From Geosiphon pyriformis uo1 (Eukaryota > Fungi > Glomeromycota), in contig JAAOMT010000710.1 in NCBI GenBank assembly GCA_016748015.1, positions 372,001 through 436,000 of the forward strand: a stretch of DNA of 64,000 nucleotides, in the 5' to 3' direction. Below are positions 13,787 through 59,290 of the stretch, piece by piece. The notes beneath the pieces were generated by a model. That model worked only from the letters and a program-made list of their open reading frames with translations. It was not told the DNA's origin and made no database searches. The first letter of the stretch is position 1. Each line of letters opens with the position of its first letter. The translations under genes and the position numbers were made by a program.

Positions 13787-13788
13787 TT

Positions 13789-13804
13789 TGGTGCTCTTTT
13801 ACAG
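13789..13804 (+). promoter_or_regulatory. G1 primer-binding site
   Basis: TGGTGCTCT.. 2 nt after the LTR, complementary to a tRNA ending ...GAGCACCA. Confidence 0.85.
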
Positions 13805-13831
13805 AAATAATACAGCAACAACAAATTCAAA

Positions 13832-19468: not shown

Positions 19469-19514
19469 AACATAAAAACAACACCCATTTGAATTAACAA
19501 CAAAACAACAAACA

Positions 19515-20900: not shown

Positions 20901-21022
20901 TTTAAATTTATTATTATAGTTATCTTTTTATAATTTAGAAACAATTTCACAAAAACAAAACAAAAATAACATAAAAACCCATACACCAAAAATAAATTTC
21001 TTTTATTTTCAAATCTCTTATA

Positions 21023-29965: not shown

Positions 29966-30010
29966 TTTGGTGCTCTCCCATAAAAATAACACAGCAACAA
30001 CAAATTCAAA

Positions 30011-35631: not shown

Positions 35632-35688
35632 TACTGACAACAATTCCACTACAACTTACTAACCTACCAACAAAATAACCAAACAAGA

Positions 35689-37071
35689 ATGAATCTCAGA
35701 AATTACAGCAATCTTAAAAATTATTTAGAGACTCTTACTATGCCAGAAAACTGGTTTCCAAGTAAAAAACATCATTTACAACACCAATCAAAACAATATT
35801 TCATACACCATAACAAAATCTATTATAAAAATCACAGAAACCCAAACCAACCACTCAGATTAGTAAAAGAGAATAAAAAAAAACAATTTTATACAATATG
35901 TACACAGATCCGTCTTCAGCACATTTGGGAAGAGATAGAACAATTCAAAAAACTCTTAAACATTATTTTTGGCTTCACATGCAAAAAGACATTTGACAAT
36001 ATGTAGAATCTTGTAATAGTTGTCAAAGAAGAGAAGGAACTTGTTCCACAGAACCTTTAAATCCAATCAAAGTTGGATAACCTTTTGACAGAGTGGGAAT
36101 TGATTTAGTCAGACCATTACCTATTACAATTCAAGAAAATCATTATATTGCAGTAGCAGTAGATTATCTCACCAAATGGCCTGAAATTAGAGCCATCCAA
36201 AGAGCAGATGCAAAATCAGTAGCAAATTTCATCTATGAAAACATTATTTGTAGACATAGATGCCCAATTGAACTTTTATCTAATTAAGGAACACATTTTG
36301 TAAACAACTTGATACAAAAAATTTGTAAACAGTTCAATATCAAAAGACCTCTATTATTATTTTATCACCCTCAAACAAATGAACTTGTAGAATGTTTCAA
36401 CAGAAGATTGTGTGAATCATTAGCCAAAGTCTCAACAAATTTTGAACAGAAATAAAATATCTTTATTCCATCAGTATTACTAGCATACAGAACACTAAAA
36501 CAAGATACTACAAAACACACTATTTGATCTTACTTATGAAAAGACAGCAATACTACCAATTAATTTCACAGTGGAAACATACTCAGTACAACCAATTAAT
36601 GAAGAAAACTTTCAAAAAACACTCTAAAAAAGGGTCTACACTCTTCTTAGTACACTGGAAGAAAAAAGAAGAATAGCAGCAACTCATATTGAACATTCCC
36701 AAGCTCAACAAAAAGAAAGACATGACAACAAATTACCACCCATAACCAATGAATTTAAAATTGGAAATAAAGTTTTTTTACACAGAACTAAGACTGAAAA
36801 ACAATGGAGTGGAAAATTTGAAAACAAATGGGATAGACCATTTTATATTCACGAAATTCTAGACAATGGATCATACAAGTTAAGACTTGATGACAAAATA
36901 CTAGCAAAAGTTGCACATGGAAATAGATTGAAACACTATTATTCCAAAAACAATCCTGAACCATTAATTCCACAAATTGGTACACATTCTCCTTTAATTA
37001 ATCCTGAAGATATTCTCTGAAATTTAGAACCAATAATTATAATAGAACAACAGCCAAACTTGAACACTTAA
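35689..37071 (+). pseudogene. G2 integrase ORF
   Basis: ATG 35689; GIDLVRPL; VDYLTKWPE; ends LEPIIIIEQQPNLNT. Confidence 0.9.
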
Positions 37072-37239
37072 TTCAACATAATTTTACAATATTTTTTATA
37101 TAAACCACAAAACATAAATCAAAAAATAGTAAATAATTATAAAGAAATATTTAAAACCCAAAAACAAATAAAAACCCTAGACCCAAAAATAATTTTCTTT
37201 ATTCTTTTCAAACTTTGTTATTAATTAGTCATTTTTATC

Positions 37240-37947
37240 ATGATTTTTCCCCAAAATATTCAAAAAATATTCCAAAAATTAATGTTAACTTTAAAAACAC
37301 TTCCTGACTTGTCCATAACGATTAATGGAAGTCAAATTAATTATATTCAGAAAGAAACCACAGCCCCAATAGTAAATAATTCTCAGAACTATCACCCTTA
37401 TAGAAAAAAGACAAGAGGTCACTCTGAAAATAGATTACCAGAACTTTTAAAGCAAGCACTAGAAGAAAACCTTTCAATTGTCCCTATTGACATTCTACCA
37501 AATACCACAATATAACAAAAACTTCTACTACTCCTTAATAGACAGAACAATGAACATATCCTTATATATAAATATTTTTATATTGGAAAAACATTTTATA
37601 AACGAAAACTAGAACTTAAAGCAACCAACATCACTCCTGAGACTATACAAAAACAAATTCACAATGAATTCAAGACAGCAGCTGGACCAACAAACACTCA
37701 TTACAAATTTATAGCAGCATCTAGACTCTATGATTTATTCAACACTTGTGAAAACGTTCTACAAAATCTAATAATCCATCCAATGAAGATTCAATACATT
37801 GGAAAACTCACAGAACTGAAATTTCAACAATTTTCAGACCAGATTACTTCAATTATCTTGGACCACTATCTTAATATCACAGATAATGCTTGGACTTTGA
37901 CAGAACTCAGTCTTAAGGAGGAGATTATGTTACCAGTAGAATTTTAG
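37240..37947 (+). pseudogene. G2 ORF3
   Basis: 236 codons, one frame, internal stop; homologous to G4 ORF3; overlaps PPT (37915-37924) and LTR. Confidence 0.85.
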
Positions 37948-38205
37948 CTATTAATTAACATGAAATTACTCTTATAATTCCTATTATTAATTAGCATATA
38001 TCATTATCATTTTGATTATCACTTATTATTTAATCAAATTATCAAATATTATTACTCAATCAATAATCTGATTTGTACTCGAGAAATTAAGATGTTCAAA
38101 TTACACAATACTTTGAACTATTTAACATAGTTAAAATTTGCCAAAATTAATAAAAATTTGCTGAAATAATCAATAGTTCAGTGAAATAACTTGTAAATTT
38201 GCCGA
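37928..38205 (+). repeat. G2 3' LTR, left part
   Basis: Matches 29000-29277. Confidence 0.95.
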
Positions 38206-39066
38206 TGTTACTCATAGAAATATAGGGAATATATATTAGCATAATTATTAACCAATCAGAAGTAGACGTAGTAAAATGTGGAATTCCAGGATTCCTCTCA
38301 GGAATTGCAGGATTTCAGGAATTACAGGATTCTTACAAAAAATTGCAGGATTCCAGAATTGCAGGATTCCTTTCAACGGAATTGTAGGATTCTAGGAATT
38401 CCAGATTTCTTGTTGTGAAGAATTGAGGAATTGAGGAATCTCAATTATGTATATATAGCAGTAGAATTAGATGCTAAAAAAACAGATCTCTTAGTTTAGA
38501 TTTTATCTAGACAACTTTCCAAATCACAAATAAATAACTGTTTGTTATCTCAAACCTGCTGCCACTATTAACACTTTATGTTGATAGTAATTGATACTTA
38601 ACCACACTAGAACAATAACTCTTGATCACAGCTATTGACAAAATACTAACTTGTAAATTGCCTTGGCTTATTTTTTTTTTTTCTTTATTTTCTTTATTTC
38701 TTGCTTTGATTTTATTGTTGTTTACTAACTCTATTGAGAATTAATGCATGGGATACTGACATCAGGATAAATGTGACTGGTAAAAGACCCAGAAATAAGG
38801 GTAGAACACTTGATTAAGGATAGCTTACTAGAAGGAATACCAGCCATCAAGCTGAGAAAAAAATTGACAAAACTGCAGTTTCAAGAAGCTATGGATAAAA
38901 CTATTACCATTGAATCTCTGTCTATTATACAAAGAACTCAACCAAACTCTTCAGATACAAATCTTTCAAACACAAATTTTCAGATCACTATTAACTGCAA
39001 CTAAATTTGAGCACCAAGTTATGGGTTTGTTATTTAATTCAACACCAAAAATAGTCACCTGTAACA
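38206..39066 (+). repeat. G3 5' LTR, with GGAATTCCAGGATTCC-type tandem repeats at 38280-38440
   Basis: Matches 57718-58588. Confidence 0.95.
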
Positions 39067-39125
39067 TTTGGTGCTCCCTGTGAGGTATAATCCTACAGAG
39101 AACCAGCACCAACACAAATCTAAAA

Positions 39126-42100
39126 GTGACAAAATCAGAAAACATAGGAGCAAACCATCTAGGATTTATGAAATCTTTATTTCAACACTACTGTCAACAT
39201 TTGGGATTAAATCACAACCACATATCAGTGGAATCAGCTTTCAATTTCTACATCAATGAAAAAATTGCCTATCTGTTAGGAACACCAGTAAATATTGAAT
39301 TGGCAAGAGAAGCTTTTTACAGTGAATTAATTCAAAATACCAACCTGCCAACAAATCACAATTTCACTTCCATCATTATGGAAATCAATAAAGAAATTGA
39401 ACACCACATACAGCAAAGATACCTCATTGTTTATGCGAACAAAGACAAAGAAAAACTGCAAACACCAGCAGTAATACCTAAAAGAATACAACCACCTACT
39501 TGGAGTTGAGTCCTCAACTAATCCATCATACCACTATACATTCGGAAGTGTCATTAATATTACATCTACTGGCACGGCCACATCAAACACAACATCAGCA
39601 TTTAGACGATTTCCATTCCAAAGTAAACAAAGAAAAACAGAGTTATTAGGACCATATAGCACATATTTTGAAGAATTTAACTCATGATCATCAATGCCAT
39701 CAAGACTCCAATTGTTACTGCCTCCTCCAGATTTCAGAATTTCTGATCCATGGGAAGTAATGAAATCAGAAGAAGAGGAAGAAGAAGAAGCTAAAAATCA
39801 AGAATTCACTTACCAGAATCTGATTGCTAAAAACCCAGAATTTGAAATCCCGAATCTTTAAACCCAGCAAAATCTAAACCCAGAAAATCCAGAAATCAAA
39901 ACTCTGAATATTCAGACACTGCCAACTTAGGATAATTGAAACTCTGATTTAATAAATCAACAAAACTTACCTCTAGTAATCATCATCAATCAACCACCAA
40001 TTAATCCAATAGCCAAACTTATACAACTGCCACTTCAACTACCACTCTAACAACCCATGCAACAACAACCACTTCAACTACCACCACAACAACCCAACTT
40101 AGATCCAATAGCCTACATACCAATCGCAAAACTTGACAATTTTACCAGCAAAGAGAATGATACCCAAATATGGCTCAATGACATTGAAAAAGCCATAGTG
40201 GCCAACAGATAGAATGACAGTAGAGCTCTTCAAGTGATCCCCTATTTTTTCAAAGATATTGCTGACTTGTGGTATCAGAGCCTAGCCACCAAACTACAAA
40301 CCTTCAATGAGTTCAAAACAGAATTCTTGAAATACTTTAGTAATAACAATAGTATCAATCACTTAATCAACACATTTACCACCATCAAACAAGGGGACAC
40401 AGAAGCAGTCACCACTTACTTGGGACACTTCCATAGAAATCTGTGCCAAATTCAGGCAATTCAAGCTGATTACTTTACAGCACCACAGATCTTGAACCAA
40501 TTCATTAGAGGATTGTGCAGTAGCATCTTTCAGCAAGTACGTTCAATGCATCTAGTTGACCTCCCAACCACCATCACTCACGCCAGAGATTTTAAAGCAG
40601 CCGAGCTAAAAGCCAACCATACCCAAGCTGTAAATTTAGTGATGAATAGATCATCTGACTTGGATTCTAAACTAAAACAATTCAGTAATACAATCAATCA
40701 GAAACTAGAAGGATACTTAGCTAACAATCATGTAATCTATTAACCATCACAACAATGCAATAATTCAAAAAACACAAATTGTTTCCAAAATCAGCCACAT
40801 TTATCAACATCATTGTCATCATCATTACCCAATCAGCCGTGACAGCCAGAAACACATGTTTGCCACAATTGTGGTAAACAAGATCACATTAAAGCCGACT
40901 GTTGATTTTATAGCAACAATTCATGATCAGGAAATCAATATCAAAACCCCAATCGCAGATTTCAGACTCAGAATCACTACCCAAATCAAGACCAATATCA
41001 AACCACTTACCTGCCAATAATGCAGCAACCAATCTATCAACTGTCAATATATCAACTTCCAATTTATCAACTGTAGCCACCAGTAATTTATTAGCCACAG
41101 CCCCAAATAATTTATCAGCTCCAACAACCAATTCAAACACCACTCCAAAACTCCACTCAAATGACATCAGAAAACCCAAGACCTAGAATCACTCAAAACT
41201 GGAAATCAGCAATAGTTGTTCATCAACCAATCTCCAGCTTTTCTCACCAACTATTAGGCTCTTGACAGTGGAATCCGGATACTGGTTCCACCCAAAACCT
41301 AAATTCCCAGAACTATTTAAGTCTTCTGGTTACCCCAGAAGATGCCACCACCAACAACTCAGAATCCAACCCACCCCAAACAACACTCACCAATAATATT
41401 CCACCAGCAATGGTCACTGAAAACGAATCTCTCGCAGCCATCTTTTTTTTCAAATTAGAGAAAACCATCAACTCATCTTTGTTCAGTGGAGCAGCACTTG
41501 AGAAGAAACCTATTACCATGATATACACTGATGCAAAAGTTGATGGTCACTTCATTAAACTGATCCTAGATAGTGGATTAGCTAGCAGCATCATCACAAA
41601 ACAACTCATGGATCAATTAGGTCACTGACATGATCACACTGTCAGCGCCAGAATTATTACAGCCAATGGAGTGACCAAAACACCCATTGGAGAGATTGAT
41701 GATTTCCCCATAGAAGTTAATGGCATCATAGTACCAATCAAAGTACTTATTATGGAAGCCACTTAATACCAAGCACTTGTTGGGAACAACTGGCTGTTCA
41801 AAACCAACATGACTCTAGATTGGAACACCCAAGAGCTCCAGCTTAGCTAGAATGGTCGACACATATGGGTACTAGCCACATGTGGCCACTTCAAGCCCAT
41901 TACCACACCATCATCACCACTTATCAAATTTGAGGAAGGAAAAGCAAAACCCATCTGGGAAGCATACCAAGTCTTGTGGGCCAATGTTGACCACAACAAA
42001 CTGCTGCCAATACTCGCCTGGGACAACAACAACAACAGAAAGGAGAAACAAAGAGAAGAACTTACCTGGGAAGCCACCATCAACACTTGAATCAACAACA

Positions 42101-44260
42101 ACCAAAGCAAGATGCCACCAATTCTAGATTGGGAAAAAAAGAACAAGAAAAAAAAGAAAGGAAGGGAAGAAAACATACCTGAAGAAACCACTACTGCAGA
42201 AAAAATAACTAGTGGTTGGGAAAAGAAATACTCATGTGAACCAATAAAAGAGCTGCCATATATACCTCTCAAATGCAAGGACTGTGGAAAGAAACTGTCT
42301 TCAATAAGAGCTTGGGTAGTACCAGACGAAGACTACTGGACGCGAACCCATTACTTTTGTAAGCCCTGCCATAGAGAACAATATGACTACCCAAAAAGAC
42401 AAGACAAGTAAAACAACAAACCATGTTTCACTTGTGGCAAACAATTACTCGATAAAAGAATGTGGAATGACATTTCTGGTCAAGAAGGAACATGCGACAC
42501 TTCGTGCCAATACATGATCCTTATCAATGACTGAGTGAGTTGTGGTATGCCCATCACAGCAGCATGGCACCAAGCTATATTCTGCCTAGACAGCTATCCA
42601 CATGACAAGGACGAGATCTAACAAATGGCCAATGCCAAAGTAGAAGGCGCTTTGCCCAGTGAAATGGAGATCAAGAATAACCCTCCAGAACCAACAGACA
42701 TTGTTTTGGTTCTCAACCTGGATGCCTTTATTGACTTAGAAAACAGCCCAAAAGAATTCCATAAATACTATCAGAATCTAACACCCACAAGAGAAGAGCA
42801 AAAGCAATGCTTGGAAGAAATCAACACCCAATTATGTGACCACTGTTTGATTCCATGTGACTTCCAATTCTGTGATGATTGTAATCTTATCTACAATCCA
42901 CCACCACACATGATCTACACAATTCCTGAAAAAAAAAACCAATCAACAGCTGCACATTAGAATTGGAATTGAGTTCCAACTCTGATTCAAACTCCAACAA
43001 TAATGATAACAAAAATAATAGTTCCAGCTCAGTTTAAAATGGCTATGACAATAATTCCAACTCAAATTCAAACTCTGATTCAAATTATGAACAATATATT
43101 GCACTTTCTAACCTCACCAAGTAGCAAGAACTGAAATGGTTCAGTGATAATGATAAAAGTATCATGCCAGAACATGTGCATAATACTAATACAGGTTTTG
43201 ATTTGAGATATCCAGAAAAGGATGCCATTAAATTGGAACCCCATTTGTGCACTTGCATCAATCTGAAAATAGCACTGGAAATTCTAGCAACAACAATGAT
43301 TCAATTAGTATTTAGGAATAGTTTAGTGAAAAAGGAAATAAATATCAGAAAAGGAATAATTGATGCAGGATATGTAGGAAATATTATTGCTATGCTACAA
43401 AATAACTCAGAAAAGGCCTATGTTATAGAGCCAAATGAAAGGATAGCACAGGCAATATTCCTGCCTCTGATGAAAATAGCTCAGTTAGTTTCAATGGAAA
43501 ATAGGAAAGAATTAGAGATAACAGCAAGAGGGATACAGAGATTTGGATTAACAGGTAGAATAGATGTATCAGTCAATATGATAAAGGAGGAAATTATTGA
43601 TCAAGGAGAAATTATCTCAACTGGTCAAACAATTTTTATTCCACTATATAGCTGATACATGTTAGCAATAGAAAGGAGAAAGAAAGAACAAAAACAGATT
43701 TTTGAAGCAGAAGCAACTCTTTGTGAATCAGGAGAAATTGGACTTATCAATCTACACATACCAGCCAAGAGCCATAACCATATCAAAATTCCCATCTACA
43801 ACAATACTGGAAATGTTGTAAAGATATCAGAAGGAACCACTCTCAGATATTTAACCATGGAAATTGAAGATCAAGCACCAAACAGCATTCCAGATTTTCT
43901 ACAGCTTTGTGGATATGTGAATATTATATTATAAACTATCTATGAATGAAACGAATGTTATTTGTTACAGCCAGAACAATTGGAACAGATAAACATGGAA
44001 AATTTAGACCCACTTCAACAGATGCAACTAAAGATATTACTCAATAATTTCAATGACATCTTCGCCAGTGAAAACAAATTTGGTAGAACTGATATTATCT
44101 AGCATTAGATCAAGACTGGAGATGTAATATCAATCAAACAGTGAGCATATAGAGTACCACCAGCCAGCCATGAAATCATCCATCAAGAAATCAACCAAAT
44201 GCTTGACAATGGGTTAATTTAGCTATCAATGAGCCCATGGTCATCACCAGTAGTACTCGT
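39126..44260 (+). pseudogene. G3 ORF1, left part: Gag-PR-Cys-rich domain-dUTPase-RT start
   Basis: GTG 39126; capsid (I/M)AYIPIAKL 40108; CHNCGKQDHIKADC; LILDSG; dUTPase 43164-43560; SPWSSPVVLV. Confidence 0.9.
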
Positions 44261-45201
44261 TGTTACCGGAAGTTTTGGTCTCTTTTTTTAAATATTGTAA
44301 ATGTCTGTTGGTTGCAAATTCACGTTTTCTAGAAGTAGTTGAACCTCCAATAACTGAATTTATCTTCAAATTATCTTCTATAATTTGAACTTACTGGGCT
44401 TATAAGTGGAATGGCCAATTCCGTGCCAGTTACTTTATGTAGTTACATTGTAGTAAATGTCAACTCTTTTACAGGAATCTTGTCTGTAGGCTACCCTAAT
44501 GATTATAATAAGAAAATACAAGAAAATAAAAGAAATGTAAAAAAAATAGAATTCTGTCAAGGGAAACGTTTTCTATTCAGACCTGGAGTTACTAACAGTT
44601 TACTGAAATTGGTAGCTAATCAATTTCGAAATGTTAGTTGGGTTTTGGGGATTTTCCAAGTGCAATAATTAAAAAATTTGGTTTTTCAAATTATTTGATA
44701 TTTTTTTTTTGTGTATATAGGAACGGTTCTAAGAGATAAATCTAAAGTAAGATATATTTTCTTGAAAAAAAAAGCTCTTCTTTTATACAACTTGTTGTAA
44801 TACTAGTCTATGAACTTGCACTTTTTCTCTTTGCTCAAATTTTGGCAAACTAAAGATACATTTTGATGAACTACAAGTTATTTTGCTAAATTATTGATTA
44901 ATTTGGGTGAACTATTCATAATTTCGGCAAATTTCTGTAAATTTCGGCGAATTTCTTATAAATTTTGGCGAATTTCTGTAAATTTTGGCGAATTTTTAGA
45001 ATGTTACAAAGTTCAGAGTATTGTATAATTTGATCATCCTACTTTTTGTTATACTAATTAGATTATTTTAATTGAATCGTGATATGTGATAATTAATTAA
45101 ATAATAAATGATAATTTAAAATAATATTAATATACTAATTAATTATAGGAATTATAAGGGTAATTTTATGCTAATTAATAGCTAAAATTCTATTGATAAC
45201 A
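44261..45201 (-). repeat. G4 3' LTR
   Basis: Matches 53453-54444, with a ~68-bp deletion and one extra 19-bp repeat unit. Confidence 0.95.
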
Positions 45202-45898
45202 TAATCTCCTTTTCAAGACTGAGCTCTGTCAAAGTCCAAGCACTATCTGTAATATTGAGATAGTAATCCAAAATAATTGAAGTAATCTGGTCTGAAAATT
45301 GTTGAAATTTCAGTTTTGTAAGTTTGTCAATGTATTGGACTTTTATTGGTTGCAGTATTGCATTTTGTAGAACATTTTCACAAGTATTAAACAAATCATA
45401 GAGTCTAAAAGCTGCTCTAAGTTTGTAGCGACTGTTTGTTGGTCCAGCTGTTGTTTTGAATTCATTGTGGATTTGTTTTTGTATAGCTTCAGGAGTGAGA
45501 TTTGTTGCTTCAAGTTCCATTTTTCGTTCATAAAGTGTCTTTCCAATGTGAAAGTATTTATAAATAGGGGTGTGTTCATTGTTTTGTTCATTGAAAAGTA
45601 GTAGAAGTTTTTGTTGCATTGTAGCATTTGGTGGAATGTCAATAGGGACAATTGAAAGATTTTCTTTTAGTGCTTGCTTTAAAAGTCTTGGTAACCTATT
45701 TTCAGAGTGACTTCTTGTTTTTCTTCTATAGAGGTAATAGTTCTGTAAATGATTTGCTACTGGGGCTGTGGTTTCTTTCTGAATGTAATTAATTTGACTT
45801 CTATTAATTGTTATGGATAAGTCAAGAAGTGTTTTCAAGGCTAACATTAACTTTTGGGATATTTGTTGAATATTTTGGGGAATAATCATAATAAACAT
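45182..45898 (-). CDS. G4 ORF3, intact 238-aa protein of unknown function (homologous start probably 45889)
   Basis: Open frame; homologues at the same position in G1, G2 and G3. Confidence 0.85.
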   Translation of the reverse strand: MFIMIIPQNIQQISQKLMLALKTLLDLSITINRSQINYIQKETTAPVANHLQNYYLYRRKTRSHSENRLPRLLKQALKENLSIVPIDIPPNATMQQKLLLLFNEQNNEHTPIYKYFHIGKTLYERKMELEATNLTPEAIQKQIHNEFKTTAGPTNSRYKLRAAFRLYDLFNTCENVLQNAILQPIKVQYIDKLTKLKFQQFSDQITSIILDYYLNITDSAWTLTELSLEKEIMLSIEF

Positions 45899-46035
45899 GA
45901 TTAATTATAAAAAGAGAAAATAAAGAAAATTATTTTTGGGATATGGGGTTTTTTATTTGTTTTTGGGTTTGGGTGTTTTTGTAATTTATTTACTATTTTT
46001 GTCTTTGTGTTTTTATTAAAGAATTATTGTAAAAT

Positions 46036-47421
46036 TTAAGTGTTCAAGTTTGGTTGTTGTTCTATTATAATTATTGGTTCTAAATTTCGGGGAATATCTT
46101 CAGGATTAATTAAAGGAGAATGTGTACCAATTTGTGGAATTAATGATTCAGGATTGTTTCTGGAATGATAGTGTTTCAATCTGTCTCCATGTGCAAATTT
46201 TGCTAGTATTTTGTCATCAAGTCTTAACTTGTATGATTCATTGTCTAGAATTTCGTGAATATAAAATGGTCTATCCCATTTGTTTTCAAATTTCCTACTC
46301 CATTGTTTTTTAGCCTTAGTTCTGTGTAAGAAAACTTTATTTCTAACTTTAAATTCATTGGTAATAGGTGGTAATTTGTTGTTATGTCTTTCTTTTTGTT
46401 GAGCTTGAGAATGTTCAATATAAGTTGCTGCTATTCTTCTTTTTTCTTCCAGTGTACTAAGAAGAGTATAGGCTCTTCTTTGGAGTGTTTCTTGAAAGTT
46501 TTCTTCATTGATTGGTTGCACTGGGTATGTTTCTACTGTGAAATTAATTGGTAATATTGCTGTTCTTCCATAAGTAAGATCAAATGGTGTGTGTTTCATA
46601 GTATCTTGTTTTAGCATTCTGTATGCTAGTAACACTAATGGAATAAAGATATCCTATTTCTGTTCAAAGTCTGTTGAAACTTTGGCTAGAGATTCACACA
46701 ATGTTCTGTTAAAATGTTCTACAAGTCTATTTGTTTAAAGGTAATAAAATGATGATAAAGGTCTTTTAGTATTGAACTATTCACAAATTTTTTGTATCAA
46801 GTTGTTTACAAAATGTGTTCCTTGATTAGATAAGAGTTCAATTGGGCATCTATGTCTACAAATAATGTCTTTATAGATGAAATTTGCTACTGATTTTGCA
46901 TCTGCTCTTTGGATGACTCTAGCTTCAAGCCATTTGGTAAGATAATCCACTACAACTACAATATAACGATTTCCTTGGGTTGTGATAGGTAATAGTCCAA
47001 CTAAATTAATTCCAATTCTGTCAAAAAGTTGTCCAACTTTGATTGGATTTAAAGGTTCTGTGGGGCGAGTTCCTCCTCTTTTTTGACTACTATCACAAGA
47101 TTCTACATATTGTCAAATATCTTTTTGCATGTGAGGCCAAAAATAATGTTCAAGAGTTTTTTGAATTGTTCCATCTCTTCCTAAGTGTGCTGAAGAAAGA
47201 TCTGTGTGCATGTTGTATAGAATTGTTTCTTTTTTATTTTCCTGTACTAATCTGAGTAGTTGGTTTTTGTTTTTACAATTTTTGTAATATATTTTGTTAT
47301 GGTGTATAAAATATTGTTTGGATTGGTATTGTAATCGATGTTTTTTACTTGGAAACCAATTTTCTGGCATGGTGAAAGTCTCCAAATAGTTTTTGATGTT
47401 GTTGTAGTTTTCTGGATCTAT
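46036..47421 (-). pseudogene. G4 integrase ORF
   Basis: 1386 nt, one frame, start ATA (decayed ATG); HHCC, DDE, GPY/F-like region. Confidence 0.92.
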
Positions 47422-47488
47422 TGTTGTTAATCTTGTTGTTTGTTCTGCTGTTAAGTTTGTTGGTGTTTTGTTGGTGTTGATATTGGTA

Positions 47489-50400
47489 TTAATATTGTCT
47501 CATTTTTGAGAGGCTATCAACATTGGTGTGTAGTTTTTCTGGTTTGTGATGTACAATATATCTGTAGTTTGCTAGGAAGTCATTCCATCGAGACTGTTTG
47601 GCACTTTGTTCAGTTTTCTTTTTATTAAGCCATTTGAGACCAATATTGTTAGTTATTATGTCAAATTTTTTTCCATTCTTTAAGTATTATTGAAAGTGTT
47701 TGAGAGCCCAGATGACTGCAACAGCTTCTAATTCAGTTGAGCCATATTTAAATTCTGTTGGCTTGAGTGTTCTGCTGGCATAGGCAATAACTTGTTCCTG
47801 GCCATTTTCATCCAATTGTGATAAGATGGCACCAAATGCTATGTGTGAAGCATCAGTGGCTAATTGGAATCATTTGTTGAAGTCTGGGTAAGCAAGAACT
47901 GGGGCTGTTGTCAATTTTGTTTTGAGAGTTTCAAAAGCTTTTTGTTGTTCTTCAGTCCATTTGTATGGTACGTTTTTGTTGGTAAGATAATTGAGTAGTT
48001 TGACAATTTCTGAGAATCTTTTTATGAATTTTTGATAGTAAGAGGCTAATCTTACAAATCCTCTTAGTTCTGTAGTATTTCTGGGGGTTTGAAAGTTTTT
48101 GACAGCACTGATTATTTCTGGATTTAGTTTGACTCTGTCTTTACTAACTATGTGTCCAAGAAAAATCAAGCTTGTTTTTCCAAAGTGACATTTCTCAATA
48201 TTTAACTTTAATTCTGCTTTCCATAATTGTTGAAAAACTTCTTGCAAGTGAATAAAATGAGTCTCAAAGCTTGGTAAGTATACATCAGTATTATCAATAT
48301 AGACAACCACTGATTGTCACAAGAGTCCTTCATATAAAACATCCATGAGTCGCTAGAATGTTGCTGGTGCATTGCAGAGTCCAAAAGGCATAACATTAAA
48401 TTCATAGTTTCCTTCTTGGGTAGTAAATGCTGTTTTGGGTCGGTCTTTTGGGTCTATTTTGACTTGCTAGTATCTACTTTCTAAGTCTAAAGTTGAGAAG
48501 AACTTGGCTTTTTCTAGAGCATCTAGCATGTTATTAATTCTTGGAAGAGGGTAGATATCTCTAATTGTAACACTATTCAGTTGTCTATAATCAACACAGA
48601 ATCTGATTTTTCTGTTTTTCTTTTTAATTAAAACTACTGGTAAGGTCTAAGGACTTCTTGATGGTTGAATCAATCTGTTATTGAGCATTCTTTGGACCTC
48701 TTTTCTAATGAATTGGTGGCTGGCAGGTGGCACTCAATAAGCTTATTAACATTTTGGTGAAGCATCTCCTGTATGGATCTGATGTTGAACAATGTTCATT
48801 TTTTCCAAGTCATTGTTGTCTTTTGCAAATATATCTGCAAATTCAGTTATCAATTGTTTCAATTGTCTTTGTTGTTAAGGTTCTAAGGGACCCATGTTGA
48901 TTCAAGAGAGTTTTTCTTCTAAAAAGTGGTAGTTTTCAGTAATGGGAATGATATTTGGATTTGGGAGTAGAGTGTGTCTTACAATTTCGATGAAATTAGA
49001 GACAATTTGAGGGTTTTCATTTTGAAAAATATTGCTGTATATGATTCCAATTTTTAATTTGTTTAATAAGACAATAGGGTAATTATTGGGGTTGTAGAAT
49101 GTAACTCAAAATTTTTTCATTTCTTTGGGAATATAAACGTTTGGAATTGAGATTTCATGCTTCAAACAAATTTGTTCATTGGATTCAAAGATTTGTTGTG
49201 TAGTGGTGGGTTTTGAGCAAGTGTAAATTTCGTGATGTTCTCCAAAAAGTGAAATGGTAATTGGCTGGAGAAGTTGAAGAATCTGGTGAGATTCATTTTG
49301 TGTATTAAGAGCTATGTTTACTGGAACTGTAAATCGTTCAGTTGAACCAAAACCTTGAGTTCTTCTTTTACTTTTTCCCAATTGTTCTTTGTTGTTTACT
49401 GCTTATAATCCTGAAATGTTGATTAAGGGTAAGTAAATTGCTTGAGCAATTTTTTCAGCATGTTCAATTTTGAATGGTTTGTCTGTTTCATTCTGTAACA
49501 TGATGGTAATGTCTTCAGTGTATTCTGCATCTATAACTCCTCCTCTAATATTGATTCCTTTGCTTGACAATGATGATTTGAAGGCAATTTGAACTATTGC
49601 TCTTAGTGGAATTTCAAGAGCAATTTTGAGATTGATTTTTGTTAAGGACTTTGGTTAGAGAACCAAAGTATCTTTTCCTGGGTATCTTAGGTCATATTCA
49701 GCATCAATTTCGTGTGCTTTTTCTGGTCTGATTTCTTGGCCATGGTTGTCAAAATATTTAAGTTGTAGAGATGGTTGCTTTTCAAGAAGATAGATGGGGG
49801 TGGTTGGTAGTTTTTCTACTAGTTTAGATATTTCAAATTCGATTTCATTTTCATCATTCTCATCTGGCAGAGGAATGCTAAGAGCATAACATTCTAAACA
49901 CTATTGGTTATCACAAGACATAACACATTCTTCACACAATTGAATATTTATTTACTCTAATCATTGAATTTGGGCTTTTTTGGTCAGATATGTGTGGCTT
50001 GCAATTTGGTGGTAGGTTTCTACTTCATCTTTATAATCAAATCCAGCTAATTCTATGATATACTTAATATATTCAGCTTCTTTCATTTGGCAGACATCTT
50101 CTTAGATGGCTCCATTGATCAATGCCATTGCTAAGTCAAAAATTATTTTAGCATCATAAGGGTAGTGGTAAAGTTTATTGAGAGCACTGTTGTATGCTGC
50201 ATCAAATGGTGTTCTTCTTCTGACTTTTTCTGAAATTGATAGAGCATATTGACAGGTTTGATCACATACTCCTCCTCTCATTGCTACATCAATCCAATTG
50301 CATTCTTCTGGTAGCATTTCTCCATATGTAAGACAAGATGTGTTGTCCCATTTTCCACTTCTTTTTGAAGATCCAAATCGTTCTCTATGACATGTTTTGC

Positions 50401-53107
50401 AAAAGTAACAGGTATGAGTTTCATATTCTTCTTCTGGAGAAATACATGCTCCCATTGATAAAAGTTTTTTGTTGCAATCTTTGCATTTGAGTAGAATATA
50501 GGGTGGTTGTTTCCGTGGTTCTGGTGTAGAATATCTAACTTTTTTCTATCCTCTTGATTCTTCAAAAATCTCCTGTTCTGTTTCTTCAGCCCAATTGGAT
50601 GTTGATCCAAGAGCCATGTAGGTTTCAGTAAGTGGCATTTCTTTCTTCTCTTTAAATTCAAATACTGGGGCTTTTTCTGATTGTTTGTTAAAGGTACCAC
50701 AGATTGCAGGTACTATGGTATATTGTTCTTGATATAAGATTTTAAGTTCTTGAGTTTCCCAGTTCAGGTTTGCATTGGCCTTGAGAAGCCAATCATTTCT
50801 GACTAGAGCTTAATATTGGGATGCATTCATAACAAGAACTTTAACTTGAATGGTAATTTCATTAATTGAAAAGGGGAAATCATCAATTTCTCTTACTGGA
50901 GTCTTTTTCATACCATCAGCTGTGACAATAACTGTTTGAGCTGGTCTGTCTATGTTTTGTTTGAGTTGTTGCATCAGCTGGTAAGTAATAATACTTCCAG
51001 CCGATCCACTATCTAAAATTAAGCGAATGGGTTTTCCTTTTATTATAGCTTCTGTGTACATAGCAGTAATTGCTTTCTGTTCATTAACTGCTGTATTACT
51101 AAGCAGAAATGGTGATTCATTTGCTTTAAATTCAAATGGAAATATATCTGACAGATTGGCATTTTGGGCAATTTGAGCTGGTGAAATAGTGTGGTTGGAA
51201 GAGTTTGATCTTGGTGCTGCAACTTCACCTTCAGAAAGTGCAGTTTGTTAAAAATCCGATTCCTCTGATATTGTAAGATAACTGGGTTGAGTGTAATAGT
51301 GATTGGGTTTTTGCTGACCAGAATTTCGGAGAACCAACTGGTTATTTGGATTGATTCTGTTGTGGTTGCTCTGCAATTGATTTTGGAGTGTAAATTGGTT
51401 ATGTTGAACCAATTTTCTTGCTGGTACTTGATATTGTTGAGTGGGTGGTGTCTGATATGGCTGAATTGGTAAAGGTTGCTAATATTGTTGCTGCATTGGT
51501 TGTGGAGCTGGTGGATAGTAATTGTTTTGATTTTGTGGTCTTGGTGAATAATAAGTTGGTGGTGGAGATTGGTAATAGGATTGTTGTGGGGAAGAGTAAC
51601 ATTGATTACTCCTGTTTTGTTGGTCTCTTTGTAATTTCCTACAATCTCATTTTCAGTGTTCTGGAATTCCACAATAATGACAATTTTGAGGTTGGTTGTT
51701 GGATGATGATCCAAAATTGTTTTGGTTGTGTTGTTATGGGGGTTGATATCTTTGTGGTTGTTGTTGCTGTTGTTGTTGGTTTGTGAAGTAGCTTTCAACT
51801 TTTTTTGTGAGTTGGTCTATTTTCTTTTCAGCTGCTGAGCTGGTTTCTCCAATTGCAAGATTTACAAGCTTGGTGTGATTTGCTTCTTCTATTGCCATTT
51901 CATAGCTCTTTGCATGTCTAATAGCAGTTGCTAAGTCTGCTGGAGCATGTAGATAGACTTTCTTAATCAGTTTGTCTTTTAACCCTGCTATAAACTGATC
52001 CAAAATTTGAGCATCAGAATAGTAGTCATTGGTTTCTAATTGTCGGATTCGTCTGAAAAGTTTGTTAAATCTTCCAAAATAAGTCATAACAGTTTCAGAT
52101 GTTTCTTGTTTGATATTGCAAAAGTGGTTTCTGAGAGTGATAAAGGTATTGTTGTCGGTGAATTGTTGTAGAAAAGCATCTTTGAATGCTTGCCAGTTTT
52201 CAAATGGTTCTACTAAGTTTTCAAACCATTTTCTTGCTGTTTCTTGAAGAAAGTAGGAAATTGCTTTGAACATTTTTGCTGCGATCCAACCATTTGCATC
52301 TCCTGCTTTTTAAACTTTGTCAAGCCATTTTTGAAGACTGGTATCATTGTCTTCACCAGTGAATTCTGGGATTTTTGCAATGTAAGCAGTTGCCATTTCT
52401 TCTTCGTTTTCTGTAATTTCTTTTGATTTAGTTTCTTCACTTTTCAAGCTTTCTAAATGATTACTTTTGTTTTCCTGTAAGTAATCAATGATATTGATAC
52501 TTGTTGATATTGGTTCCTGTTGTTGAGTAGGATTTTTAGGTGACTGAAAATCTTCTGGTCTGGAGAAATAGTTAAGTGGTGAACTTGGTGTTTGTGATTG
52601 AACAAGTGAAATTGGAAATGATGCAATAGAAAGTAGTAATTTGACACTAGTTCCTTGTTCAGGTGTTTGCAAATGTTTGGCAGTTGTCTTTTGTAGTGTT
52701 GGAGTGTTTGGAGTAGTTTTTGAGTATTGCTTCAATCTTTGTTTGTCTTTGTTGCTTGTTTCTGTCTTTGATTCAAAATCAAAAGAGTATTTAGACTGTA
52801 CTAGGTATTTTTCTTCACAATGCTCAATAATGTTAAAATTAAGTTCTTGAAAGTAGGTAGCAAGTGTTTTACTGTTCAGGTCTTCTGTTTCCAATTGTGA
52901 ATAGTGCACTAAATTATTGTAGAGGTTGCTTCTAACTTCTGAAATGTTGTAGTTTCCAAAAAGATAATTGTTGATGCGGTTTTCAATATATTGGTATACT
53001 GATTTCTTGACAACTTCAATTTCGTCTGGAATGTTGAATCTTTGCTTGCAGTGGGTGTAAATTAACTGGTAATACTCTAGAGTTGCTGTGTCTGGTGTGG
53101 TTGCCAC
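47489..53107 (-). pseudogene. G4 ORF1: Gag-PR-Cys-rich domain-dUTPase-RT-RNase H (1873 codons, no net frameshift, internal stops)
   Basis: ORF-track starts 53107, 52273, 51061, 50455, 49381 and 48310 and the stop at 47491 are all in one frame. Confidence 0.93.
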
Positions 53108-53436
53108 TTTGAATTTGTTGTTACTGTGTTATTTCCNNNNNNNNNNNNNNNNNNNNGTAGCAAGTGTTTTACTGTTCAGGTCTTCTGTTTCCAATTGTGA
53201 ATAGTGCACTAAATTATTGTAGAGGTTGCTTCTAACTTCTGAAATGTTGTAGTTTCCAAAAAGATAATTGTTGATGCGGTTTTCAATATATTGGTATACT
53301 GATTTCTTGACAACTTCAATTTCGTCTGGAATGTTGAATCTTTGCTTGCAGTGGGTGTAAATTAACTGGTAATACTCTAGAGTTGCTGTGTCTGGTGTGG
53401 TTGCCACTTTGAATTTGTTGTTACTGTGTTATTTCC
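52857..53436. other. Assembly gap (20 N, 53137-53156) flanked by an identical 280-bp duplication
   Basis: 52857-53136 equals 53157-53436. Confidence 0.9.
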
Positions 53437-53452
53437 ATGGGAGAGCACCAAA

Positions 53453-54444
53453 TGTTACTGGAGGTTTTTGGTCTCTTTTCTTGAATATTGTAAATGTCTG
53501 TTGGTTGCAAATTCACGTTTTCTAGAAGTAGTTGAACCTTCAATAACTGAATTTATCTTCAAATTATCTTCTATAATTTGAACTTGCTGGGCTTATAAGT
53601 GAAATGGCCAATTCCGTGCCAGTTACTTTATGTAGTTATATTGTAGTAAATGTCAACTCTTTTTCAGGAATTGCTCATCTGGAAGCTCACTAAAATGTGT
53701 AATTACTTTGCTGTAAAAGTCAACTCTTCTACAGGAATTTTGTCTGTAGGCTATCCTAATGATTGTAATAAGAAAATACAAAAAAATAAAAAAAATGTAA
53801 AAGAAATAAAATTCTGTCAAGGGAAATGTTCTTTATCTAGGCCTGGAGTCACTAACAGTTTACTGAAATTGGTAGCTAATCAATTTCAAAATGTTAGTTG
53901 GGTTTTGAGGATTTTCCAAGTGCAATAATTAAAGAATTTGGTTTTTCAAATTATTTGATATTTATTTCTTTTTGTGTGTATAGGAACAGTTCTAAGAAAT
54001 AAATCTAAAGTAAAATACATTTTTTTGAAAAAAAAAGCTCTTCTTTTATACAACTTGTTATAGTACTAGTTTATGAACTTGCACTTTTTCTCTTTGCTCA
54101 AATTTTGGCAAACTAAAGATATATTTTGATAAACTACAAGTTATTTCGCTAAACTATTGATTAATTTGGGTGAACTATTCATAATTTCGGCAAATTTCTT
54201 ATAAATTTTGGCGAATTTCTGTAAATTTTGGCGAATTTTTAGAATGTTACAAAGTTCAGAGTATTGTATAATTTAATCATTCTACTTTCTGTTATACTAA
54301 TTAAATTATTTTAATTGAATCATGATATGTGATAATTGATTAAATAATAAATGATAATTTGAAATGATATTAATATACTAATTAATTATAAGAATTATAA
54401 GGGTAATTTTATGCTAATTAATAGCTAAAATTCTACTGGTAACA
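53453..54444 (-). repeat. G4 5' LTR
   Basis: Followed (minus strand) by TT and PBS TGGTGCTCTCCCATGG. Confidence 0.95.
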
Positions 54445-54448
54445 TTGT

Positions 54449-55577
54449 CTGTAAGAAGAATAAAAAAATCCGATTTTGTGTAAACTATAAGAAACTCAAT
54501 AGTGTAACTTGTAGAGACAGCTATTCAACTCCACGGATACAAGAACTATTCGACACTTTTAGTAGAAACAAATGGTTCTCAACATTAGACTTGAATAGTG
54601 GTTACTGGCAAGTAGCCATAGATCTAGCTGACAAAGAAAAAATGGCATTCACCACAAAAGAGGGAAACTTTGAGTTTGAAGTTATGCCATTCGGCTTAAC
54701 CAATGCTCCAGCTATATTCTAACAGCTAATAGAAATTGTGTATACTAGTTTATTGTGAAAATTAGTAGTTGTATACTTGGATGACACCAATGTGTTCTCA
54801 AAAACATTCGATGATCATCTACGTCATCTCCAACAAGTGTTCAAAAGACTACAACAAGTAGGATTAAAATTGAATGCAACAAAGTGTTTTTTTGGCAAAA
54901 CAGAACTAAAATTCTTGGGACATATAGTTAGCAAAGATGACATAAAAACAGATCCAGAGAAAATAGAGATAGCAAAAAACTTTTCAATACCAACCAACGT
55001 AACTGAGCTGAAATTATTCTTAGAATTCACAAGCTATTATAGACACTTCATAAAAAACTTTTCAAAAATAGCACAACCACTCAATGATCTTCAAACCAAA
55101 AATGCAAAATATGAATGAACTGAAACCCAACAAGAAGCATTTGACATTTTAAAAAGAAAGCTTATTCAAGCTCCAGTATTGATCTATTCAGATCATAGTA
55201 AACTATTCATTATTACCACTAATGCATCAGGTCAAGCATTAGAAGCAGTACTATATCAGAGAGGATTGGATGAAAGAAAACATCTAGTCACATATGCCAG
55301 CCAAGATTTGACTCCAGCCGAAAAAAACTATGGAACACCAGAATTAGAATATCTAGCAATCTATTGAGCAGTTATGAAATGGAAAAAATACTTGAGCCAA
55401 AAGTTTAAGATGTACACAGATCACAAAGGATTGATATCACTCCAAAAACAAGAATTTGGAGATGGAAAACAATCAAGATGGAAAATGGCTCTTTCGACAT
55501 ATACTTATACTATACATTATAAAAAGGGAAAAAACAATGGAAATGCCAACAGTTTGTCACAAATAAGACAAATCTAA
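54449..55577 (+). pseudogene. G3 ORF1, right part: RT-RNase H
   Basis: KIRFCVNYKKLN, MPFGLTNAP, VYLDDT, YTDHKGL; ends SQIRQI-TAA. Confidence 0.9.
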
Positions 55578-55638
55578 GAACATTTCAACCCAAAAATATA
55601 ACAAAACCAAAACAATACTCACAAAAATATAACAAAAG

Positions 55639-57020
55639 ATAAACACACAAAAATATCAACAACTTCAACATTATATAGATACTCAACAGTTCAAGAAGAA
55701 ATTATCTCAACCAGAACAAAAAAAAATCAAACAACAATCCAAATATTTTATCACTCACCAAAATATACTTTATCAGAAAAATAGAAAAGATTCAGATCAA
55801 CCAACCAGAGTAATTACAGAACCAGAAAAGGAGACAATACTGTTCAACATGCACTCAGATCTAACTGCAGGATATTTTCATAAAGAAGCAACCATGGAAA
55901 GAACCAGAAAGAGATACTATTGGCCATCAATGTATCCAAACATCATCCAATATGTGCAAAATTGTGATACTTGTCAAAGAAGAGAAGAAACAAGACCCAG
56001 CAAACCATTGAAACCAATCAAAGTGGAACAACCATTTGACTGCATTGGAATCAATTTAGTTGGACCATTGACAATTACCAGCAGAGACAACAGATATATT
56101 GCAGTAGCCATAGACTATCTTACTAAATAGCCAGAAGCCAAAGCAATTCAAAGAGCAGATGCAGAATCCATTGTTGAATTTGTCCATCAAGATCTGATTT
56201 GTTGACATGGATGTCCGAAAGAACTATTATTAAACCAAGGAACCCATTTTGTGAATAGAACATTAGCAGAACTAAGCCAAAGATTCGGAATTAAGAGACC
56301 ACTATCATTACCATATCATCTACAAACCAATGGATTAGTTGAAAGATTTAATAGAACATTGTGTAAAGCAATAGCAAAACTCAGCCAAGAAAACCAGGAT
56401 GAATAGGATTTGTTCATATTATTAGTATTATTTGCTTATTGGACAATGAAACAAGACACTATACAAGCAATACCATTTGAATTGATATACGATAGAACAG
56501 CAACATTACCAGTTGAAATAGAGATTAATACATATTTAACTGAACCAATAACAGAAGAGAATTTCTAAGAAACATTGTTAAGAAAAACATATGACTTAAT
56601 AAAAACATTAGAAAACAAACGAAAAAGAGCAGCTGATAACATACAAAAATCACAAGAGAAACAGAAAAAAAGACATGATAATTAACTACCAGACAAACCA
56701 GTTGAATTCAAATTGGAGACAAAATACTCTTACATCATACCAAAGTGGAAAAACAATGGAGTGGAAAATTCGACCCCAAATGGAATGGACCATTTTACAT
56801 AAAAGAAATTCTAGGGAATGGAGCTTACAAATTAAGACTGGATAACAAAATTTTAACCAAAGCAGCACATGGAGATTGACTGAAACCATACCACAATATC
56901 ACACCACCATCCACCAATAATATTTCACAATTAGGAGTATAGAAGATACTAGTCCAACCAGAGAAAATTCCATGAGATTTGGAACCAATCATCATCATTG
57001 ACAACAACATGTTAAATTAA
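55639..57020 (+). pseudogene. G3 integrase ORF
   Basis: ATA (decayed ATG) 55639; MHSDLTAGYF..CDTCQ; QTNGLVERFNR; KWNGPF; ends DLEPIIIIDNNMLN. Confidence 0.88.
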
Positions 57021-57044
57021 TTCATCAAAAAAATATATAAAAAC

Positions 57045-57737
57045 ATGGTAGATGTAACAAAAAATATCAGAAAAATGGAAATCACAGACAACATCTACTT
57101 ACTAGCACAACAATTCTTTCAATTGATTCAACACCAAGAGATAGAAATTACAATTAATCAACAAACCATCTGATATCAAGACACTAAAAAGACATTGCCA
57201 CATAGAACACAGAAGAAAACAGAAAATACTATTGACAAAATCATTGCAAAAGTAAAATTAGCAATAAAAGAGTTGACAAAAGAGTCACTATACCAAGAGT
57301 TGACTAAAGAAACTTAGAATTAGTGGATACAACAATTTCCAAGAAACTATTATTATTTTTACTTAGAACAACATGTGAATATTCAGAATCTATATATGGA
57401 TAAAACAAAGCAATTATTTGACACAAGAATACTACAACAATTAGAATATTTTGTGGGAAAAAACAACTTATCCACACAAACCTGAGCCATATACCAAATA
57501 CACACAGTATTTCAGGATTGACCAGAAATTTTACTCAACAAAGCAATGGATATAGTTATCAGTAATCAATTAGGAAAGATTACCAATGCTCAATTTGAAG
57601 AATTACAGACTCAAATAACACAAGTAATTCTTGAAAATGAAATTCAGGAAATACTTCAAGAAGAGGAATTAACAGAGTTAGATTTCAACAAAGCTCAATA
57701 TTAAAAGGAGGGAATAATGTTACTCATAGAAATATAA
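57045..57737 (+). pseudogene. G3 ORF3 (divergent homologue)
   Basis: 231 codons in one frame; YYYFYLEQ, AIYQIHTVF, LGKITNAQF and EGIML align with G4 ORF3. Confidence 0.75.
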
Positions 57738-58588
57738 GGAATATATATTAGCATAGTTATTAACCAATCAGAAGTAGACATAGTAAAATGTGGAATTCCA
57801 GAATTCCTCTCAGGAATTGCAGGATTCCAGAAATTACAGGATTCTTACAAGGAATCACAGGATTCCAGAATTCCAGGATTTCTCTCAAAGGAATTGCAGG
57901 ATTCCAGGAATTCCAGGATTCCTGTTGTGAAGAATTGAGAAATTGAAAAATCTCAATTATGTATATATAGCAATAGGATTAAAAGCTAAAAAGACAGATC
58001 TCTCAGTTTAGATTTTATCTAAACAACTTTTCAAACCACAAATAAATAACTGTTTGTTATCTCAAACCTGCTGTCATTATCAATACTTCATGTTGATAAT
58101 AATTGATACTTAACCACACTAGAACAATAGCTCTTAATCACAGCTATTGATGGAATACTAACTTGCAAATCATCTTGGCTTATTTCTTTTCTTTTTTTAT
58201 TTTATTTTTTTTTCTTTATTTCTTGCTTTGGTTTTATTGTTGTTTACTAATTCTATTGAAGATTAACATGTGGGGTACTGACATTAGAATAAACGTGACT
58301 AGTAAAAGACCCAGAAATAAGGGTAGAACACTCAATTGAAGATAGCTTACCAGGAGGAATACCAGCCATCAAGCTGAGAAAAAAATTGACAAAACTGCAG
58401 TTTTAGGAAGCTATGGATAAAACTATTACTATTGAATCTCTGTCTATTATACAAAGAACTCAACCAAACCCTTCAGATACAAACTTTTTAGACACAAACC
58501 TTCAGATCACTATTAATTGCAACTAAATTTGAGCACCAAGTTATGAGTTTATTATTTAATCTAACACCAGAAATAGTTACCTATAACA
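57718..58588 (+). repeat. G3 3' LTR
   Basis: Copy of 38206-39066. Confidence 0.95.
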
Positions 58589-59290
58589 CTGAAATGTATC
58601 TTTAGTTTACCCAAATTGAAAAAAAAGAAAAGTGCAAGTTCAAGAATAGTACTACAACAAGTTGTATAAAAGAAAAGCTTCTCTTTTCAAGAAAATGTAT
58701 CTTTCCCATATCTTATCATAGTATTTTACTTTAGATATCTTAATTGAAACAAATCATTTTTTACAAAAATCAAATAAAAATTAAATATTTGAAAACCAAA
58801 TCCTCAAAATTATTACACTTGAAATTCCCTCAAACACAAACTAACGTTTTAAAATTGATTAGCTACCAATTTCAATAAGCTGTTAGTAATTCCAGGCCTG
58901 AATAGAAAACGTTTTCCTTGATAAAATTCTATTTTTTTTATTTTTTTTTTATTTTTATTTTATTTTATTTTCTTATTACAATCATTAGAGTAGCCTACAG
59001 ACGAGATTCCTGTAGAAGAGTTGACTTTCACAGTAAAATAACTACACATTTTAGGGAGCTTCCAGAAGAGCAATTCCTGAGAAAGAGTTGATATTTACTA
59101 CAATGTAACTACACAAAGTAACTGGCATGGAATTGGCCATTCCATTCATAAACCCAGTAGTTCAAATTATAGGAGATAATTTGAAGATAAATTCAGTTAT
59201 TGGAAGTTCAACTACTTCTAAAAAATGTGAATTTACAACAAACAGACATTAACAACATTTAAGAAAAGAGACCAAAAACCTCTGGTAACA
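58589..59290 (+). repeat. G2 3' LTR, right part
   Basis: Matches 29274-29965. Confidence 0.95.

Follow-up and report, generated by a model that had tools for sequence, protein, structure and literature searches.

Long terminal repeat (LTR) retroelements are taken to deliver their integrase (IN) as a part of Pol. A group of nested Ty3/Gypsy-type elements in Geosiphon pyriformis uo1 raises the question of whether an LTR element can instead carry IN as a separate gene and, if so, how such an IN would be made. The window analyzed here is a 64,000-nt stretch of contig JAAOMT010000710.1 (positions 372,001 to 436,000, forward strand), and all coordinates are those of the window unless they follow a locus label. 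It holds four such elements, of which the focal one, copy C (44261..54444, minus strand), is inserted in the reverse transcriptase (RT) of copy D. The sequence comparisons below argue that these elements are a real Ty3/Gypsy variant with a separate integrase gene, and the mechanism by which it would be expressed is offered as a proposal. A lineage of this kind must express and package IN in another way, and it bears on whether the Ginger1 transposons derive from a Gypsy lineage.

A shared three-ORF layout in two families

Copy C is a single LTR-to-LTR element with TG..CA ends, whose 5' LTR (53453..54444) and 3' LTR (44261..45201) are 94.6% identical. Past an assembly gap its first open reading frame (ORF1) stays in the same frame over 1869 codons, interrupted by 26 stops, and gives Pfam matches to Gag, protease (PR), dUTPase, RT and RNase H (RH). 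The part that starts at the Gag Met at 52396 (47489..52396) runs in a single frame through Gag, PR, a Cys-rich domain (49874..50551; 16 Cys, five CxxC, no Pfam match), the dUTPase (49340..49726; PF00692, E 3e-17), RT and RH to a terminal TAA at 47491-47489. This is followed by a 67-nt spacer without ATG (47422..47488; 57% A, 4% G), a stand-alone integrase ORF in a different frame from ORF1 (46036..47421), a further ATG-free spacer of 137 nt (45899..46035) and a third ORF (ORF3) of 238 residues (45182..45898), which crosses the polypurine tract (PPT) and ends 20 nt inside U3. All of these features lie on the minus strand.

The other three copies are on the plus strand. Copies A (12804..22686; GTG at 13832, IN ATG at 19515) and B (29000..59290), which are respectively 76% and 88% identical to C at the nucleotide level, belong with it to family 1. 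Copy D (38206..58588; GTG at 39126, IN from 55639, ORF3 at 57045-57737) is interrupted by C and itself interrupts the 3' LTR of B, and its 53% RT-RH identity to B places it in a second family. An earlier note on this DNA had claimed that four copies from two divergent families share one layout, and this was borne out: in all four, a stop after RH is followed by a separate IN and by an ORF3 running into U3. The RH stop lies 4 codons past the RH end motif in every copy, and the RH-IN spacers measure 46, 57, 67 and 61 nt (67 in C), contain 2-4% G and give frame offsets of +1, 0, +1 and +1. All four keep the Gag-PR junction in frame; an ORF1 frame without a break can be followed throughout in C alone, as A, B and D each carry frameshifts of their own. 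The IN ORF opens with ATG in A, B and relatives, and with ATA in C and D.

The TG..CA LTR ends, target site duplications (TSDs) within the 4–6 bp range, primer binding site (PBS) and PPT are those of Ty3/Gypsy elements, and the Ty3-type capsid, RVT_1, RT_RNaseH, H2C2 and rve domains keep the PR-RT-RH-IN order. The departure lies in IN not being inside the pol ORF, so that the domain order is kept and the ORF is broken.

The extension upstream of Gag, the Cys-rich domain, IN and ORF3 are all under purifying selection. Between subfamilies (A versus B or C) dN/dS was 0.29–0.37 for the extension and 0.21–0.23 for IN; it was 0.15–0.25 for the Cys-rich domain (0.15–0.18 for A versus B or C) and 0.20–0.29 for ORF3 (0.20–0.27 for A versus B or C), and off-frame controls gave 0.48–1.27. 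Unlike the RH stop, internal stops are seldom shared: of 67 ORF1 columns with a stop in A, B or C, 59 have it in a single copy, 7 have it in two copies and 1 has it in all three, this last position being a Trp column. A conserved RT Trp codon (48319-48317, minus strand) is a stop in all four copies, which chance decay is enough to explain, since 15 of 26 Trp-type columns are hit by a stop in one or more of the family-1 copies. Differences between the LTRs of a copy are nearly all transitions (transitions to transversions 50:0 in C, 35:1 in A and 82:4 in D).

Relatives with a separate integrase

With the focal IN as query, 50%-identity representatives yielded many stand-alone proteins of about 420 residues. 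Among the 140 relatives listed, 28 start at the column of the window IN Met, 66 are fused or have long N-termini, and 46 are fragments or of other kinds. A segment M-[DEN]-x-x-x-Y forms the start of all 16 IN proteins that were aligned, these being chosen stand-alone ones. Scans with this alignment as query found 162 loci, 92 of which have both RH and IN; 64 of these are fused, 8 have an RH stop followed by the conserved Met, and 20 are broken without that Met and were treated as decayed. As the query is biased toward split elements, these counts are not frequencies. A survey of related sequences, as the earlier note had called for, recovered the split at the same Met in 8 of 92 outside loci (L002, L003, L004, L009, L010, L018, L085 and L102), with RH-IN spacers of 30–521 nt and frame offsets of 0 or +2. 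Intact relatives, from metagenomes, show the split as well: four of the eight loci are intact (L002, L004, L009 and L010), and in a further relative, P0261, Gag, PR, RT and RH form an intact ORF with its end at the RH motif.

A search for longer IN-containing proteins gave 17 matches, with only the R. clarus gene model P0004 at 40%. In P0004, RH is joined to IN and the RH end motif is missing, and we read the join as a predicted intron laid across the junction. Annotation reads such elements as broken or invents introns over this junction. A scan of viral contigs with a single IN query found no match, and an RT-RH search of long proteins was dominated by multi-RT animal gene models.

In trees composed of loci without named reference elements, the RT-RH data (56 rows) placed the four copies, L010 and P0004 on one branch with support of 98/89, and the 13 split rows required 3 changes. 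The RT+IN tree (39 rows, excluding B, L085 and P0261) had 11 split rows on one side of a branch supported at 46/52, with a core of 7 rows at 95/86, and the IN-only tree (36 rows) again gave 3 changes for the split state. A single origin of the split elements is thus allowed by these trees, with weak support (46/52). Of the proposal that the copies form a distinct, retrovirus-like complex lineage, what holds is that the separate IN and ORF3 are real, selected and common to a wider Ty3/Gypsy-type group; one origin has no more than the 46/52 support just given, and "retrovirus-like" was an overstatement (see below, on ORF3). The split IN and ORF3 can be regarded as traits of this lineage, the link of ORF3 to outside relatives being weak. 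As lineage-wide features, a fused gag-pol, the Cys-rich domain and the dUTPase find no support, and these, like the GTG start, are seen together in the Geosiphon copies. Among 166 sequences the Cys-rich domain and dUTPase occur only in the four window copies, few split relatives spanning PR to RT, and gag-pol varies among relatives, with a frame break between gag and pol in L002 and a fusion in P0261.

Several relatives carry additional coding sequence of their own. Extra RH-IN coding sequence is present in L085 (2-1146), L016 (189-464) and L003 (888-1396). That of L085 has a Cys/His-rich segment in common with that of L016, and in L003 it holds two small ORFs, the last stop of which overlaps the IN ATG. 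Long and apparently unrelated N-terminal extensions precede the capsid in L002 (1-2916, very Cys-rich), L085 (3499-4638), L102 (1-1908) and P0261. The retrotransposon contigs L085, L086, L087 and L102 lie in bacterial genome assemblies or metagenome-assembled genomes, and these labels probably reflect fungal contamination through binning.

How integrase would be expressed

We consider it very probable that IN is a separate translation product. The length and frame of the RH-IN spacer vary while the Met stays fixed, which argues for independent initiation of IN, and no fixed frameshift or readthrough would fit offsets of +1, 0, +1 and +1 in the window and of 0 or +2 in the eight relatives. As for the route, we give about an even chance to termination-reinitiation on the genomic RNA: ribosomes that have terminated at the end of ORF1 would resume at the AUG of IN itself once past a short spacer free of AUGs. 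The dosage of a separate IN would be uncoupled from fused Gag-Pol, and IN would have to be packaged in trans. We favor reinitiation over the other routes because the spacers of the window copies are short, low in G and devoid of AUGs, and because the IN start of L003 shows a stop-start overlap. A purine is found at position -3 in 11 of 12 IN starts, and no ATG was found in the four window RH-IN spacers or in seven IN-ORF3 spacers. There are precedents for reinitiation after long ORFs in SART1, CHV1, HvV190S and CaMV TAV (PMC10275272), which likewise have a downstream ORF with its own AUG, possibly on a single RNA.

Several observations speak against this route. The expected number of ATGs is only 0.08–0.17 per RH-IN spacer and 0.2–1.4 per IN-ORF3 spacer, which makes empty spacers weak evidence, and RH-IN spacers with ATGs do occur among the relatives, in 5 of 8 (1, 1, 3, 4 and 8 ATGs, about as expected). 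Unlike the known systems, the window copies have no stop-start overlap at RH-IN, and no structure, cis element or transactivator, of the kind normally needed for reinitiation after ~1,860 codons, was found in the window. Furthermore, extra ORFs of LTR elements typically come from spliced RNAs (PMC5408684). With so little statistical weight on the missing AUGs, and with AUGs in the spacers of 5 of the 8 relatives, production of IN and ORF3 as separate proteins from subgenomic RNAs, spliced or internally promoted, comes close behind reinitiation.

Such a subgenomic origin, to which we would give perhaps one chance in three, leaves spacer length and frame free to vary and accommodates the long, ATG-containing spacers of L003, L018 and L085. 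Foamy-virus Pol and env-type ORF3s are made from subgenomic RNAs. Three window copies, B, C and D, have AG dinucleotides close upstream of the IN start, but the RH-IN spacer of A lacks the dinucleotide, as do the spacers between IN and ORF3 in L004 and L085, there is no shared acceptor position, and the stop-start overlap of L003 also argues against it. ORF3s of other elements are typically spliced (PMC5408684). Initiation of IN by internal ribosome entry, or by a dedicated RNA element on the genomic RNA, appears unlikely. It draws on a 41-nt stem-bulge-stem-loop whose loop lies 12–46 nt upstream of the ATG of IN in five relatives (L001:21-61, L008:174-214, L012:7-47, L016:491-531 and L086:160-200), with 93% of cells paired, 6 of 9 pairs changed on both sides and none of 500 shuffles scoring as high. 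However, the structure was derived from the same five sequences on which it is scored, single-strand z-scores are weak, and a search with its model gave no match either in the window or among 18 further loci (best E 1.8). An Rfam search of nine loci gave no match.

Continued fusion of IN to RT-RH through a frameshift, readthrough or a stop-removing intron is very unlikely. The +1 offset common to three of the four window copies and the RH-IN join in P0004 might be taken in its favor, but across 12 elements the offsets are 0, +1 and +2 and the spacers 30–521 nt with the Met conserved, the RH end motif is missing from P0004, which an intron predicted across the junction would bring about, and in A, B and C the stretch from the RH end motif to the stop contains no donor-like GT. 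Least credible of all is that the layout merely reflects mutational decay of an ordinary gag-pol element. The copies are indeed full of stops made by transitions, and 20 of the 92 outside loci show a break between RH and IN where the conserved Met is missing. Against this, the stop lies at one and the same position in both families, all three ORFs are under purifying selection, and the intact split loci refute it outright. On this comparative evidence the split is not a product of decay.

The candidate GTG start and the Gag extension

In C, a candidate GTG start (53405..53407, minus strand; A at -3, G at +4) is preceded 8 codons upstream by an in-frame TAA (53429..53431), as it is in A and B, and the first Met is reached at codon 238 in A, B and C. 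The GTG is doubled in C (53407 and again at 53107-53105), with an exact 280-nt repeat on either side of a 20-N gap (53137-53156; whole region 52857..53436), and the doubling is an assembly artefact. The extension itself (52397..53107, minus strand) comprises 237 Met-free codons without an ATG in any frame. Copy D has a GTG at the same place and a homologous extension (Smith-Waterman (SW) score 77, none of 500 shuffles as high). The candidate start codon is GTG in A, C and D and ATG in B. Among the GTG/ATG columns of A, B and C, two GTGs with one ATG were seen 4 times and two ATGs with one GTG never, which makes a G-to-A change the simplest account of the ATG in B. The claim of a GTG-started extension stands in part: the extension is selected and GTG is seen in three copies, the fourth has ATG, and the start itself is likely.

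We consider it probable, with some reserve, that GUG initiation gives a long form of ORF1 and that scanning past the GUG gives a form beginning at the Gag Met; ORF1 would open at the GUG, and leaky scanning would reach the Gag AUG. Non-AUG starts need a context of the A-3/G+4 type, and an in-frame non-AUG Gag extension has a precedent in the CUG-started glyco-Gag of MLV (PMC3542737), which lies likewise upstream of the Gag AUG; the window extension differs in its GUG, its 237 codons and its lack of a signal or membrane segment. No ATG in the first 700 columns is common to two copies, versus 3–29 in 11 later windows of the alignment, and the 708 nt of the C extension contain no ATG in any frame (Markov P 0.0005). 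Against this part of the proposal, the avoidance is weaker in A (4 ATGs, P 0.09) and B (2, P 0.03), it weakens when the protein is held fixed (P = 0.17 out of frame, P = 0.026 for the absence of Met), the extension of D holds 9 ATGs, one of them the in-frame Met of codon 15, and dN/dS over the first 100 extension codons is 0.89 for B versus C, between which there is little divergence. A spliced 5' exon could also supply the start of the extension. In the contigs of run X1, no variant at the GTG or TAA was seen among the 40 of 119 variant rows listed. Taken as a whole, the picture of a split-IN Ty3/Gypsy element with three frames, IN made from its own AUG by reinitiation and ORF1 from a GUG with leaky scanning, is in our estimate evenly poised.

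Two further features lie near this start. A TATA-like TTATAAG is found in the 5' LTR of C, 191 nt upstream of the GTG. The PBS of C (53433..53450, minus strand) contains an ATG that is a CpG-decay form of ACG; A>G at 53437 makes up 56% of the depth in the contigs of run X1, and with the ATG being the minor form we rejected it as the start of an upstream ORF. No tRNA gene lies within the window, and no tRNA partner of the PBS was identified there.

ORF3

The ORF3 of D is homologous to that of family 1, including the focal copy (SW score 138, E 2e-7, none of 500 shuffles as high). A protein search with ORF3 gave 203 matches; of the 120 listed, 119 correspond to gene models of Geosiphon pyriformis and the remaining one to the window itself, and ORF3 copies are thus counted as host genes in these models. 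Outside the window, a small ORF follows IN in L004, L007, L013 and L085, and a profile of these four found a fifth match in L005 (E 4e-9). The same profile aligned with the Geosiphon ORF3s in the right place and weakly (domain E 0.08–0.7), and profile-profile comparison of the two sets gave E 9e-5 at a probability of 59. A hidden Markov model of the family-1 ORF3, run in six frames at E<=1, found no outside ORF3 and no D ORF3.

We rejected an env-type ORF3, which would call for a signal peptide, a transmembrane (TM) segment and a Cys-rich ectodomain: the protein has 1–2 Cys, a maximum 19-residue Kyte-Doolittle hydropathy of 1.0–1.2, no hydrophobic or membrane segment and no env Pfam match. Its nearest Atlas clusters are unnamed Mucoromycota proteins. 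A similarity to DUF1016_N or helix-turn-helix-type domains is a lead only (Pfam E 0.12, below the cut-off; Atlas 0.89), and with a model of pLDDT 44 the best structural matches (VIA-align Z 6.5, BFVD E 0.04) are uninformative. Tentatively, and with somewhat less than even confidence, ORF3 may be a small soluble helical protein that perhaps binds nucleic acid.

Relationship to known elements and to Ginger1

With Ty3/Gypsy elements (Metaviridae) that have one fused gag-pol, the window copies share the LTRs with TG..CA, the PBS, the PPT, the Ty3-type capsid and the PR-RT-RH-IN order, and they differ from them in having IN outside Pol, a third ORF running into U3 and an extension without an AUG start. 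A dUTPase between PR and RT is already known from the bdelloid Juno, Vesta and TelKA, from fungal elements and from planarian Burro (PMC6431247, PMC5408684). Those elements keep IN in pol, and the ORF3s of the rotifer families, of env, GDSL, DEDDy or TM types (PMC6431247, PMC5408684), include none that the window ORF3 matches in Pfam. Tat elements likewise have an enzyme domain in an ORF of its own (PMC10508981, PMC13468544), but there it is an additional RNase H, whereas here it is the sole integrase of the element. Troyka was rejected, as its 3-bp TSD and CG..CG termini (PMC12440569) contrast with the 4-bp TSD and TG..CA ends of the window elements. No Chromo domain match was found on the C-terminal 205 residues of IN at E<=0.1.

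In the literature searched, which included PMC11952901, PMC2582038, PMC2774666, PMC3248453, PMC13468544, PMC10508981, bioRxiv 10.1101/2021.03.30.436303 and PMC12440569, there is no description of an LTR element with IN in its own ORF; Repbase, GyDB and the Geosiphon genome papers, outside that search, could record the layout. That the earlier note knew of no description of this combination agrees with this search. New here are the evidence for the GTG, the CG-centred, Ginger1-like target sites and the RNA stem-loop before IN in relatives.

The target duplications are ACAG/ATGG in A (12800-12803/22687-22690), CTGG/CTGG in B (28996-28999/59291-59294), TCGT/TTGT in C (44257-44260/54445-54448) and CCGA/CTGA in D (38202-38205/58589-58592). 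Three of the four are CG-centred, one of these being deduced from complementary decay, and the fourth is compatible, in a window with a CpG density of 3.5 per kb. Ginger1 combines TGTNR ends with 4-bp duplications of CCGG, CCGT or ACGG, and in its Gypsy-type stand-alone integrase an aromatic motif precedes the zinc finger; in its description by Bao et al. (2010), no Gypsy lineage was grouped with it and how IN would be freed was left unsaid (PMC2836005). The window elements resemble it in the stand-alone IN, the aromatic motif ahead of the zinc finger and the TGTNR ends, and their 4-bp sites, ACGG (deduced), CTGG, TCGT and CCGA, may be of its kind. They are not Ginger1 elements, given that they have LTRs and RT and lack terminal inverted repeats and an Ulp1 or OTU tail. 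One IN relative with an Ulp1 tail has the same M-x-x-x-x-Y segment. A nesting of Ulp1-tailed integrases among split ones, seen in a quick tree, was not upheld in the careful IN tree, where two Ulp1-type proteins stand apart. These likenesses make a link between the split-IN lineage and Ginger1 a lead. A bolder scenario, of an old polycistronic lineage with three proteins from one RNA by GUG leaky scanning and reinitiation, an ORF3 acting as a helper like CaMV TAV and a CG-targeting free IN as the source of, or link to, Ginger1, strikes us as rather improbable.

Other features of the window

The elements are nested three deep, with C inside D and D inside B, and LTR identity (B 93%, D 90%, C 95%) is out of step with this order of insertion; it is unusable as a clock here because D (90%) sits inside B (93%). 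The IN DNA of the two families is 66–68% identical (55730-57020 versus 19606-20892 and 46173-47346), and the Gag extensions share only ~22% protein identity. LTR sequence makes up 41% of the Geosiphon pyriformis genome (PMC11952901). A decayed non-LTR, LINE-like element occupies 6400-12800 (minus strand), with endonuclease-, RT- and RNase H-like segments in translation, and stretches related to it lie at 27406-29002 and 59329-64000. Very AT-rich tracts, of 10–16% GC, occur at 1-6000 and 24001-26000.

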